The position numbers were made by a program. From NCBI GenBank assembly GCA_963828735.1, contig CAWHFW010000002.1, positions 352,001-416,000 on the forward strand: 64,000 bases of DNA, written 5' to 3'. Source of the DNA: an uncultured Gemmatimonadales bacterium. Its GTDB lineage: Bacteria > Gemmatimonadota > Gemmatimonadetes > Gemmatimonadales > GWC2-71-9. Shown one piece after another: positions 42,001-44,845 of this stretch. Positions within the stretch are counted from its first letter, which is position 1. The number at the start of each line of letters is the position of its first letter.

Positions 42001-44845
42001 GCGCTGACACGAACCGGCGCCGGCGTGCCACCGAGCCAGAGACCGAGATCGAGGATCGAGAGCCCGAGGTCCAGCATGGCGCCGCCACCGGCCTGATCCC
42101 GGCGCTGGCGCCAGCCGAGCTGGTTGCGACTCGGACGGAAGACGTGCCAGCTGCCGCGCACGCTCTCCACGCGGCCGAGCTCGCCGCTCTGCACGAAGCT
42201 CCGGACGATCTGGACGTCGGGGCGGTACCGATGATTCATGCCGACCAGCAGCACGCGGTCGCGCTTCTCGGCCGCACGCATGATGCGTTGGACGCTCGCC
42301 GCCGACATCGCGAGCGGCTTCTCGACCAGGATGTGCACGTTGGCCGACAGCGCCGCCAGAATGTGGGACTCGTGCAGATGATTGGGCGAGCAGATCACCA
42401 CCGCCTCGAGACCCGGCGTGCGGAGCAGGTCTTCGATGTCGTCCAGCGCGTCGGGCACGCCGAACCGGTTGGCGAGCGCGCGCGCCTTGGGCGCATCAAG
42501 GTCGCAGATCGCCTGCACCTCGACGGATTTGAGCTTCTTGAGCGTGGGCAGGTGAGCCACCTGCGCGATGGCGCCCCCGCCGATGATCCCGACCCTGAGG
42601 CGCTCGCTCCCGCTCCGGCTCGCCGTCATGTGGTGTCCCCCTTCAGTAGAGACGCTCGAGCACCGCGCCCGGATAGTACGCGGCGAGGATGCGCTCGTGG
42701 TCCTGTCCCGAGCGCGAGCGGCCGACCGCGCCCCATTGGCAAAACCCCACGCCGTGCCCCGCGCCGGCCCCATCCGCGACCAGGCGGGTGACCCGTCCGC
42801 CGTCCCGCGTGACGGTCAGCGTGAATGTGTTGCTCCGAAGCAGCTCGCCCGATGGCGGCCGCAGGACCCGGCGGACGTTCGGTCCGTCCACGAGCACGTC
42901 ACCGCGTCGAAGGCCGACGGTGAGTTGGCCGACGCGCCCCGAGCGGGTCAGGTAGGAGACCCGCACGTCCCGGATCTCGCTCAGGTCCGAAGCCACCGCC
43001 GTCGACCCACCGCCGGCCGGGAGCGCGGGCAGCGTACGCTGCAGCGTCGCGCGCAGCTCCGGCCCGCTCCACTCCTCGTGCCAGCGGAAGCGTGGCGACA
43101 GACTGCAGTAGGCCGTGCCGTCGTCCGCCGCGTCGGACACGGAGCGCAGGTAGGGGCGGTCGGCGCCGCGAAACACCTCGGTGCCGTCGGCGGTGCGCCC
43201 ACCACAGGTGGAATAGAAAAAGGCGTCGATCGGCGCCCCACCGTAGGTGAGGATTCGTCCCCGGGTGGCGTCCACCGCCGCGCGCCCTTCGGGGGTCTCG
43301 GTTGCAGCGCCTCCGTATACCTGATCGGCCACGGTCGCGTAGAGATCGAAGCCCAGCGCCTGCCAGCGTCGCAGATTCCGCAGGGCGAACGTGCGCGAGA
43401 CGATCGCCTGTGCGCGGAGCGCCTCCTGCTCACCCGGGCTCCGGCGCCCCATCTCCGCGCTCACCACCCCGACGAGGTAGGACTCCATCGGAAGCCGGTC
43501 CACCACGGTTACCCCGGTCCGATCGCGCAGCGCCACGATGGTGCCCCGGTAGGGGCGTCCGTTCACGAGCACCGGCGCGTTGGGACTCGGTGAGCCGATC
43601 TCGAGCACGTCGGTCGGCGCGCTCGCGGCGCCGCCAGGCGACAGCACCACCACGCCGGTACCGTTCACCGCCACCCGCCACGTTTCGCCGGTCGGGATCT
43701 CCGCAAGCCGCGCGCCGGACGGGTCGCTCACGCTGAGCCCTGCCGTGCCCGACACCGAGGCCGCCGTCGCGCCGACCATGAGTCCGACGCGTATCGTCGG
43801 CTCGGTCGGGCCCTCGGCGGGAGGTCCGGGCGCCGCCGGTGTCGGCGGTGCCTCGGGCACCGACACCGGGGTTGGCGCGGGAGGCGCGGCCGCCGGGCTG
43901 CAACTCGCGATCACGACAGCCGCCAGCGCCGCGGAGGAGAGGCCCACGACGCTCCAGCATTGCAGCCGGGCGCGGACGTCCCCGCCCTCAGCCGCGGTAG
44001 TTGCCAAACTTGAGCTCGATGCCGAAATCCTGGCCCCGGAGGAAGGCGATAATGGCCTGGAGCTCGTCCCGTGAAGGGCTGGAGACCCGAATCTCATCGC
44101 CCTGGATCGTGGCCTGCGCCTTCTTGAAACCGCCGTCCTTGACGGCCTTGATGATCCGCTTGGCCGCGTCCTGCGGGATGCCCTGGGTCAGCTTGACCGT
44201 CCGGCGGACCGATTGGCCGGTGGCGGCGATCAGCTCCCCCACGTCCAGATTTTTCACGGGGACGCCGCGCTTGATCATGCGCCCCTGGAGAACGTCCACC
44301 AGTGCGTCCATTCGGAATTCGTCGTCGGCCGCGAGTCGAATCTCGGCCTTGGGGCGATCGAACTCGACGGTGCAGTGCGTGCCCTTGAAGTCATAGCGCT
44401 GGGCGATCTCCTTCAGCGCCTGATTGACGGCGTTGTCGACTTCCTGCAGGTCGGCGCCCGTCGATACGTCGAACGAAGGATTGCTGGCCATGGAGTGGTG
44501 GCGCGAGGGTGGAAGACAGGTCGGTGTCGGCGGATGCGGGAAGGATTACCCGGGGCCCCGCGCTTGACAACCCTTTCGGCCGTCACTAGTCTCACGCTCA
44601 CGGCGGCCGACTTAAGGCCACTTGCTCCCGCCGGTGCCTCGGATGGTCCGGGACACGAACAAACAAGCTAAAGCGCCGGATGCACGCCCTCCGAGCGCAC
44701 CTGGCCGGGGGGCGTCGTGTTTGGCCCCCAGACACACGAGAATTCCATGCGGCCTCGCGCGAGCTGCTGTCGAATGATGCCCTACTGCCCCTGTCCGGGG
44801 TGGACGGCGTCATCGGCGCATGCGCGTGGAAGCGGCGGGGTCTAA

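Follow-up and report, generated by a model that had tools for sequence, protein, structure and literature searches.

A SAM-II-type pseudoknot RNA followed by a candidate methionine/cysteine leader-peptide attenuator upstream of metY in a Gemmatimonadales bacterium

The window analysed here, a stretch of 64,000 nucleotides from an uncultured Gemmatimonadales bacterium, contains a metY-ask-carbonic anhydrase-metX gene cluster on its forward strand, with a SAM-II/SAM-V-type pseudoknot RNA at the 5' start of the leader. The first gene, metY (44930-46258; TIGR01326, 656.8 bits with a cut-off of 495.1), encodes an O-acetylhomoserine sulfhydrylase and is preceded by an SD sequence at 44918-44923. It is followed on the same strand by an aspartate kinase-like gene (46255-47325; TIGR00657, E 6.9e-54, under the cut-off), a beta-carbonic-anhydrase-like ORF (47416-47823; PF00484, 32.6 bits, cut-off 25.7) and the homoserine O-acetyltransferase-like gene metX (47820-48854; TIGR01392, E 1.3e-93, under the cut-off). 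The carbonic-anhydrase-like ORF shows an apparent frameshift in the assembly, and its N-terminus seems to sit in another frame. Upstream of the leader, a sigma70-type promoter can be read on the forward strand, with a -35 element TTGACA (44564-44569) separated by 17 nt from a -10 element TAGTCT (44587-44592) that matches the consensus at only 3 of 6 positions; transcription probably starts near 44599. TTGAC is found 5' of the aptamer in all 99 loci with enough flank, at a spacing of 35-43 nt in 92 of them. A consensus promoter/terminator scanner called neither this promoter nor either of the two sense-strand terminators in the window. Among the assembled contigs of four public runs, one RNA library spans 44612-44936 and a second covers 44403-44600 and 44879-45139, which says nothing on transcription or RNA ends.

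The alignment of copies predicts an H-type pseudoknot on the forward strand, in which P1 (44601-44606 with 44628-44633) encloses L1, and P2 (44622-44627 with 44665-44671, U44669 bulged) and P2a (44616-44618 with 44675-44677) complete the core. With the pocket numbering mapped onto the SAM-V pocket of PMC6061858, the third-strand triplet lies at 44611-44613 and reads CUU in the window copy and UUU in relatives. A variable hairpin, P3 (44634-44656; -11.3 kcal/mol, z -2.38), is inserted after P1 and is followed by an A-rich linker, the 3' strand of P2, A44670-44672, the 3' strand of P2a and the tail (together 44657-44680), of which 44673-44680 also serves as the 5' strand of antiterminator 1. Across 67 sequences, 96% of the cells in the 15 pairs of the P1/P2 pseudoknot with its bulged U are paired and 6 pairs show changes on both sides, the P1 changes being supplied by the six canonical SAM-II rows that this set takes in. 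Within the subtype P1 is invariant, 4 of its 6 pairs never varying, and thus provides no covariation there. P2 is paired in 94.8% of cells, with both-side changes in 3 pairs, and P2a in 99.5%. The initial annotation stated that all distinct inserts fold into a hairpin, which is nearly the case: 82 of 83 fold at least 4 bp, with 33 different stem starts. Its statement that the pocket sequence UUUA is kept holds for the family, where 84 of 89 distinct aptamers have UUU as the third strand and four more have it shifted by an inserted base, but not for the window copy, the sole aptamer among the 89 to read CUUA. The departure from the consensus that it had noted consists of this change and of an A in place of the relatives' G at the start of the P2 3' strand, which leaves P2 with a C.A pair at its base. 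The window copy thereby has a C at the position of U8 in SAM-V, where U8 is bonded to U47, which itself pairs with the adenine of SAM (PMC6061858). Because of this C at a pocket uridine and of the weak U-tract that follows terminator 1, the window aptamer may be weakened.

The presence of the pseudoknot 5' of metY, as originally annotated, is borne out by a pattern-free check of 23 distinct metY loci of the window's clade, chosen by protein alone. The motif occurs in 20 of them (window included), two have only the uORF attenuator described below and one has only the last terminator. P1 and P2 had been partly fixed by the first search pattern; a GTDB scan using a pattern without P1 returned 93 stretches, 80 of them with flanks, and 78 of these 80 have Gemmatimonadota in their titles and share this P1. 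The genes downstream of the 80 flanked loci are metY (62), metX (8), aspartate kinase (4) and other or none (6), and the gene context is related to SAM or methionine in nearly all loci. Copies were also found 5' of ask and dapD and, in four further families within the class, 5' of metH-like genes. The element is thus lineage-specific, with a SAM-II/V pocket and a position ahead of met genes, as had been proposed, but it is not confined to metY and metX or to one family. Both parts of the leader occur separately: the aptamer stands without a uORF attenuator 5' of metX in eight loci, and the attenuator without an aptamer in L006, L008, L019 and L044, of which L006 and L008, relatives of the window, have lost the aptamer and kept the attenuator. 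A search of viral contigs gave a single match, which lacked P1 and was taken as chance. The same genome contains two Rfam SAM-II elements and one further orphan SAM-II-shaped element, so that the RNA counted as the third SAM riboswitch of the genome is at least the third, with the orphan as a fourth. SAM-I and SAM-I/IV were not found in this genome, the control for the SAM-I/IV search giving no match either.

As the initial annotation held, the motif is invisible to Rfam: the search of the window leader gave no match on it at the gathering score, and at E<=10 returned only hairpin-type chance matches. The SAM-II models RF00521 and RF01726 did not exceed the gathering cut-off on the window copy or on relatives; on relatives, SAM-II models are nonetheless the best Rfam riboswitch matches, far below the cut-off (15.5/44 bits on L301, 10.1/36 on L012). 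L1, the A-rich linker and the tail agree with Rfam-shaped canonical SAM-II from the same phylum. On sequence grounds, the aptamer fits best with the SAM-II long-loop type, P3 being an inserted hairpin, and not with SAM-V. With SAM-II long-loop (RF01726; PMC2864571) and SAM-II alpha (RF00521) it shares the H-type pseudoknot, the pocket letters, the A-rich linker, a long L1 in many copies and a downstream terminator; it differs from them by a P3 in every copy, an invariant GC P1, a longer P2 and its occurrence in Gemmatimonadota rather than Bacteroidetes. With SAM-V (RF01826; PMC6061858, PDB 6FZ0) it shares the P3 stem-loop after P1, the pocket and a position 5' of metY. P3 was described as absent from SAM-II (PMC6061858); this distinction is not strict, because some members of the published SAM-II long-loop alignment carry inserts after P1 (Weinberg 2010, PMC2864571). 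For the same reason the earlier claim of a new architecture is not supported, and the novelty of the aptamer alone is modest.

The leaning of the initial annotation towards SAM-V is not upheld. SAM-II switches act mostly on transcription, through a terminator 3' of the aptamer. SAM-V acts on translation, with the SD sequence in P2a, and a leader that hides its ribosome binding site in this way is very improbable here, in spite of P3 and of an ATG directly 3' of the tail in the window copy (44680). Pairing of the aptamer tail with the anti-SD reaches -6 kcal/mol in 0 of 100 loci, compared with 66 of 77 metY/ask starts; only 18 of 100 loci have an ATG within 15 nt of the tail, and the distance to the metY start is 250 nt. 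In every locus a terminator follows, and the tail takes part in the terminator/antiterminator switch. RF01826 gave no match in the genome, nor in the control genomes. A 68-codon ORF starting at 44680, just 3' of the aptamer, was considered as a translationally coupled target and rejected, since an ATG is present there in only 18 of 100 loci. A shift in ligand, for instance to SAH or to some sulfur metabolite, might account for the aptamer's divergence from the Rfam models and for a C at the position of A18 in SAM-V, yet the Rfam-detected SAM-II of this phylum also has a C there. As the U-A.U triple, which selects the sulfonium, the bulged U and the following A's are all retained and the downstream genes belong to the usual SAM regulon, such a shift appears quite unlikely.

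The expression platform and a second, tandem Met/Cys leader-peptide attenuator, the more novel part of the leader, had been missed. Terminator 1 (44682-44722, forward strand; hairpin 44682-44718, -24.2 kcal/mol) lies directly 3' of the aptamer and has a weak U-tract in the window copy. Its hairpin is found in 100 of 100 loci, with at least 4 U in 81, the automatic choice of hairpin being wrong in a few loci. A part of its 5' arm (44690-44698) is the alternative partner of the aptamer tail, and the resulting antiterminator 1 has a folding energy of -12.2 (z -2.6) in the window. The helix between tail and arm is paired in 84.5% of cells, with both-side changes in 40 cells, and was reached in 0 of 500 shuffles, although shuffle controls ignore the relatedness of the loci and so overstate the support; slid controls did not exceed 60.6%. 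For four of six tail classes, the best partners are arms from within that class; one pair of the helix is broken in 29 of 93 rows.

Downstream of terminator 1, a leader uORF of 32 codons with a putative start codon extends over 44747-44845 on the forward strand. Its control cluster, Cys-Cys-Arg-Met-Met-Pro-Tyr-Cys-Pro-Cys (44765-44794), has six Met/Cys in ten codons compared with a shuffle mean of 2.1, and doubles as segment 1 of the attenuator. Met/Cys enrichment of the uORF over dinucleotide shuffles is seen at p<=0.05 in 75 of 77 loci. Segment 2 (44798-44816) can pair either with segment 1 in the 1:2 hairpin (44765-44820; -31.6, z -2.5) or with the 5' arm of terminator 2 in the 2:3 antiterminator, which extends to 44881 (region -41.8, z -1.0). 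Terminator 2 (44866-44908) consists of the 3:4 hairpin (44866-44900; -32.4 kcal/mol, z -7.7) and a U-tract; it lies 20 nt 3' of the uORF stop in the window, and this distance is 16-39 nt in 75 of 76 loci. The 3:4 helix is paired in 90.3% of cells with both-side changes in 8 of 14 pairs, and the 2:3 helix in 80.8% with such changes in 9 of 17 pairs (2 of 500 shuffles). In per-locus shuffles, for which the terminator 2 regex misplaced some loci, 2:3 is supported in 31 of 77 loci and 1:2 in only 14 of 77. The consensus fold that RNAalifold gave for the attenuator alignment contains terminator 2 and a hairpin of 3 bp and nothing else, 1:2 being absent from it.

Sequence comparison brings out the pocket letters and the helices, the two terminators, the alternative pairing of each, and the codon cluster, and their arrangement makes it likely that the leader is a two-stage transcription attenuator, in which a SAM-II-type aptamer with P3 is followed by a ribosome-sensed Met/Cys attenuator. 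In the mechanism that we infer, SAM binding would let the triplex and P2a hold the 3' tail of the aptamer, so that terminator 1 forms and transcription terminates; without SAM, the tail would pair with the 5' arm of terminator 1 and RNA polymerase would read on. Translation of the uORF would then decide the second stage: a ribosome stalled on the Met/Cys codons would cover segment 1 and free segment 2, which could pair with the 5' arm of terminator 2 and permit transcription of metY-ask-CA-metX, whereas terminator 2 would form if the ribosome reaches the stop or is missing. By this AND logic, expression of the operon would require low levels of both SAM and charged Met/Cys-tRNA.

It is rather unlikely that this holds for the family while the window has a weakened or decaying aptamer stage that leaves most of the control to the leader-peptide attenuator. 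Such a state would fit the C at the U8 position, seen in 1 of 89 aptamers at a base that contacts U47 (PMC6061858), the weak U-tract after terminator 1, and L006 and L008, which have the attenuator without the aptamer; the rest of the pocket is, however, intact, as are P2a, P3 and antiterminator 1. Private errors in the window copy are also possible, since the contig of a near-identical strain has the consensus G at 44665, four letters from the contig end, and the carbonic anhydrase gene appears frameshifted. No DNA contig of the public runs covered 44611. It is improbable that the uORF does not sense tRNA charging at all, with either a Cys-rich nascent peptide stalling on thiol, sulfide or metal, or ATG and TGY triplets kept, untranslated, for RNA pairing. 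The involvement of control codons in the 1:2 pairing, the Cys-Cys-Arg-Met word conserved in many copies and the weak SD of the window uORF (-3.0 kcal/mol; uORF SD strength exceeds shuffles in only 10 of 76 loci) would agree with this. Against it, Met and Cys differ widely between copies in their order and in the distances between them, and Cys is encoded by both of its codons (TGT 138 : TGC 127, compared with 0.92 : 5.66 per thousand in the long ORFs of the genome), the frame 3' of the cluster is free (32/28/2), and leaderless uORF versions begin at the promoter in L006 and L008. In addition, sibling leaders with Leu or Phe clusters precede matching operons: leaders of like build were found in the same genome 5' of leuA (Leu/Val/Ile), pheA (Phe/Tyr) and cysH (Met/Cys). 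The genome-wide attenuator scan covered 93 terminator-plus-gene sites, missed terminator 2 of the window and also gave chance candidates. Within the proposed two-stage attenuator, Met starvation also slows uORF initiation, which would favour termination, so that control may depend more on the Cys than on the Met codons.

The second stage resembles classical leader-peptide attenuators of the trp, his, leu and phe type in its short uORF, control-codon cluster, 1:2, 2:3 and 3:4 helices and intrinsic terminator, and differs from them in its Met and Cys control codons and in the upstream riboswitch with its own terminator. The leaderless polycysteine sORFs of mycobacteria (bioRxiv 10.1101/834739; PMC1262725) likewise sense Cys codons 5' of sulfur genes, but act on translation by freeing the SD sequence and have no conserved terminators, Met cluster or riboswitch. 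In Salmonella mgtA, a metabolite-sensing RNA and a second sensor share a single leader, a Mg2+ switch being joined to the proline leader mgtL. The same principle applies to the tandem leaders ppGpp riboswitch/T-box(Leu), SAM-I/AdoCbl and SAM-II/SAM-V (PMC9481103), and tRNA charging is sensed in the T-box and mgtL cases as well; in the window leader, by contrast, a Met/Cys attenuator read by the ribosome would supply the second input, for the same pathway. The terms 'leader peptide', 'attenuat' and 'uORF' are absent from the main text of PMC9481103, and our literature search found neither a tandem of a SAM riboswitch and a Met/Cys leader-peptide attenuator nor a description of a methionine/cysteine transcription attenuator.

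This Rfam-invisible SAM-II lineage blurs the boundary between SAM-II and SAM-V, as it combines a SAM-V-like P3 with control by a terminator as in SAM-II. Of greater importance are the Met/Cys transcription attenuator to which the leader points and a natural two-input gate that would tell the SAM level apart from the supply of sulfur amino acids to the ribosome. The leader also bears on whether a control function is open to Met codons when initiation itself needs methionine. As related genomes carry the two modules both singly and combined, the gate logic and the Met-codon question are directly testable. Similar Met/Cys leaders were found 5' of metY in other phyla, and three loci of Ignavibacteria/Bacteroidota have Met/Cys leaders before SAM-I switches. 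We lean, with some reserve, towards Met/Cys attenuators with intrinsic terminators being an overlooked class 5' of metY in several phyla. Their union with SAM riboswitches would have arisen on at least two occasions, with SAM-II ahead of the attenuator in Gemmatimonadota and the attenuator ahead of SAM-I in Ignavibacteria/Bacteroidota, and would form an all-RNA gate reading SAM and charged Met-tRNA/Cys-tRNA together, including true Met sensing at internal AUG codons.

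The metY gene (start 44930; TIGR01326 score above cut-off) is preceded by a leader of 330 nt that carries a pseudoknot element at its 5' end; behind it come genes resembling aspartate kinase and metX, with a carbonic-anhydrase-like ORF between them. By sequence reading, P1 is formed by 44601-44606/44628-44633 and P2 by 44622-44627/44665-44671 with a bulged U44669; a P3 hairpin occupies 44634-44656 (-11.3 kcal/mol) and a P2a is possible between 44616-44618 and 44675-44677. The 3' end of a TTGACA-17-TAGTCT promoter lies 7 nt upstream of the element. A consensus scanner made no promoter call at the window aptamer; TTGAC is found upstream of the aptamer in 99/99 loci having sufficient flank. 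The carbonic-anhydrase-like gene of the met operon (47320-47823) is apparently split across two frames, by assembly error or as a pseudogene; by analogy, a beta-CA adjoining metY might provide sulfide by acting on carbonyl sulfide.

The initial annotation had described the element as a conserved structured pseudoknot invisible to Rfam, and both statements hold; Rfam gives no match on the window motif. When metY loci were chosen by protein and the upstream DNA then inspected (80 GTDB loci; metY match at E<=1e-100 in 20 of 101 family genomes), the motif was present in 20 of the 23 metY rows of the window's clade, from which L027, a duplicate of locus L008, and the truncated L023 were excluded; in two rows the downstream attenuator stands alone, and in one just the last terminator is present. 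Scanning GTDB with a pattern of fixed pocket letters and a free P1 yielded 93 stretches, 80 with flanks. An identical P1 occurs in all 78 of these titled Gemmatimonadota; of the other two, one is a canonical SAM-II from an acidobacterium and one probably matches by chance. The next gene is metY in 62, metX in 8, ask in 4 and other or none in 6 (two dapD-like, two contig ends and the two outsiders), so that the proposed restriction to metY and metX describes most copies and has to be widened to ask, dapD-like and, in other families, metH-like genes. At L141 and L188, aptamer and terminator directly precede the dapD-like gene, an unusual SAM-switch target.

A covariance model detected 31/151 phylum genomes at E<=0.05; the 18 strong matches all come from the window's family, and the weak ones are for the most part canonical SAM-II. 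The class-wide sample gave 16/151 at E<=1e-5, including nine in four other families, one at a contig end and eight before a gene that, from its translation, we take to be metH-like. In an alignment of 67 sequences, including six canonical SAM-II, 96% of cells are paired, with both-side changes in 6 of 15 pairs, three of them in P2, and P1 is invariant within the subtype. P3 forms a hairpin of at least 4 bp in 82 of 83 distinct inserts.

The pocket maps onto the SAM-V structure (third-strand U8-U10, U19-U20-G21, bulged U47, A48-A50) as set out in PMC6061858. Third-strand UUU (44611-44613) is present in 84 of 89 distinct aptamers, is displaced by an inserted base in four, and reads CUU in the window alone. 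The shared pocket and P3 of the proposed SAM-V/SAM-II type stand; its lean towards SAM-V is not supported. PMC6061858 takes P3 as a mark of SAM-V, and SAM-V acts translationally, whereas most SAM-II are transcriptional; none of the 100 loci has an SD in the aptamer tail (44673-44680). The L1 word, A-rich linker and tail are common to canonical SAM-II of the same phylum, and in two relatives the Rfam riboswitch models that come closest are RF01726 at 15.5 bits (cut-off 44) and RF00521 at 10.1 (cut-off 36). The SAM-II long-loop alignment of PMC2864571 likewise has a long L1, and several members have inserts 3' of P1. The element therefore shares P3 with SAM-V but lacks the SD that its translational control would need; it would work like SAM-II, from which P3 and the sub-cut-off Rfam score set it apart. 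The aptamer by itself is best read as a new lineage variant of SAM-II, of the long-loop type.

The expression platform is a part of the leader that the initial annotation overlooked. A hairpin, terminator 1, follows the tail in all 100 distinct loci, with a median of -19.7 kcal/mol and four or more U in 81 of them. The aptamer tail can pair with the 5' arm of this hairpin, using the bases that also form P2a. This helix is paired in 84.5% of cells (93 rows), a value matched in 0/500 shuffles and compared with at most 60.6% in slid controls; both-side changes amount to 40 cells in 2 of 8 pairs, and one pair is broken in 29 of the 93 rows. The mean duplex energy is -12.1 vs -8.8 with shuffled arms, and in four of six tail classes the strongest pairing is with arms of the same class. 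Both alternatives are possible in the window (-12.2 kcal/mol for tail-arm, -24.2 kcal/mol for terminator 1).

Further downstream, 77 of the 100 loci have metY or ask at a distance of at least 200 nt. In 75 of these 77, Met and Cys codons within a 10-codon window exceed dinucleotide shuffles at p<=0.05 (61 at p<=0.01), although shuffle counts overstate support because the genomes share ancestry. Both Cys codons occur in the uORF clusters (138 TGT, 127 TGC); the genome's long ORFs contain 0.92 TGT and 5.66 TGC per thousand. The reading frame 3' of the cluster is free. The uORF stop precedes terminator 2 by 16-39 nt in 75/76 loci, and terminator 2 is 90.3% paired, with both-side changes in 8 of 14 pairs (56 of the 77 loci aligned). 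Attenuators of this class are described by segments 1-4. The 2:3 helix, between uORF segment and terminator 2 5' arm, is 80.8% paired, with both-side changes in 9 of 17 pairs (2/500 shuffles); single loci support it against shuffles in 31/77, and the 1:2 helix in only 14/77. The window's uORF has a weak SD, and SD strength exceeds shuffles in only 10/76 loci. None of the eight copies directly upstream of metX has a uORF cluster. Like-built leaders precede leuA, cysH and pheA in the same genome (contig C5 near 284855, 1754162 and 2228405; L295-L297), with the stop 29-30 nt upstream of the hairpin and again a Met/Cys cluster at cysH. The labels metK, cysC, cysH, leuA, pheA, thrC-like and dapD-like were assigned in this analysis. 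Locus L112, from the unpublished genome G138, is a row in the counts of 100, 93, 89, 83, 77, 67 and 56, and G138 is within both covariance-model genome tallies; no claim depends on L112 alone.

For the leader family, a two-stage gate is the probable mechanism. High SAM would stop transcription at terminator 1; at low SAM, charged Met/Cys-tRNA would lead to a stop at terminator 2, and the operon would be on when both are low. A weakened stage 1 in the window copy is rather unlikely: it would fit the C in place of U8, the C.A pair within P2 and the U-tract after terminator 1, which is weak in the window and its closest relatives, but a near-identical contig carries the consensus base at 44665, close to the contig end.

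The two modules also occur apart or in other company. A SAM-II-shaped canonical aptamer combined with the uORF attenuator precedes metY at L020, L042 and L043, and the attenuator without aptamer at L006, L008, L019 and L044. Outside Gemmatimonadota, a Met/Cys cluster passes p<=0.05 in 11 of 66 metY loci, each of which also has a terminator call; they belong to Chloroflexota, Acidobacteriota, Actinomycetota, Ignavibacteria/Bacteroidota and one gammaproteobacterium. About a dozen further Chloroflexota loci contain a shorter cluster, not significant singly. A quick tree of metY, labelled by hand and with SH-aLRT support alone, places the Gemmatimonadota loci as the sister group of Chloroflexota loci bearing the attenuator without aptamer, which suggests that the attenuator is the older module and that the aptamer joined it later and was sometimes lost. 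In 3 of 20 chosen loci (L069, L094 and L097; Ignavibacteria/Bacteroidota), the Met/Cys leader and terminator are followed by a SAM-I riboswitch and then metY. L086 has two Met/Cys attenuators in series, clusters are present also in L057, L062 and L082, and at L055 a uORF with many Met, Cys and Thr codons precedes metY, with a canonical SAM-II farther upstream.

The whole leader reads as a riboswitch and a Met/Cys attenuator in tandem, a novel form of known kinds; mgtA/mgtL is a precedent, and older attenuator surveys exist. The literature covered, mostly outside subscription papers, contained neither a SAM riboswitch combined with a leader-peptide attenuator nor a Met/Cys attenuator with intrinsic terminator. 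PMC9481103 lists riboswitch-riboswitch and ppGpp/T-box tandems, and the polycysteine uORFs described in bioRxiv 10.1101/834739 act on translation. PMC1262725 reports Cys leaders that lack terminators, and Actinobacteria met operons without an RNA element upstream; in PMC9373788 a terminator comes after SAM-II, with no antiterminator predicted, and PMC2965389 notes exchanges among riboswitch, T-box and leader peptide.

The window's genome contains two canonical SAM-II elements with terminators, before a thrC-like gene (C3:79140-79213) and a metH-like gene (C5:1246023-1246092). A fourth SAM-II-shaped element (L298; C5 ~310250-310340, minus strand), absent from the Rfam genome search listing, has a promoter-like sequence and a terminator, no sense-strand gene downstream, and faces the end of a 5'-nucleotidase-like gene; it may be an orphan aptamer or a small RNA. 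A second P3-bearing SAM-II/V variant (L231-L294, also L047, L080 and L084), in records nearly all titled Gemmatimonadota, differs in P2 and has A-U after the pocket G-C, with a complementary 3' strand in 64/64 pattern matches. It stands in tandem with canonical SAM-II in 25 cases, 22 of them upstream of metY/metX; among 24 non-tandem copies examined, metK is downstream in most, cysC in one and sulfite reductase in one. At L263, a terminator, a Cys-rich uORF and cysC lie downstream of this variant, which makes another aptamer-plus-leader tandem.
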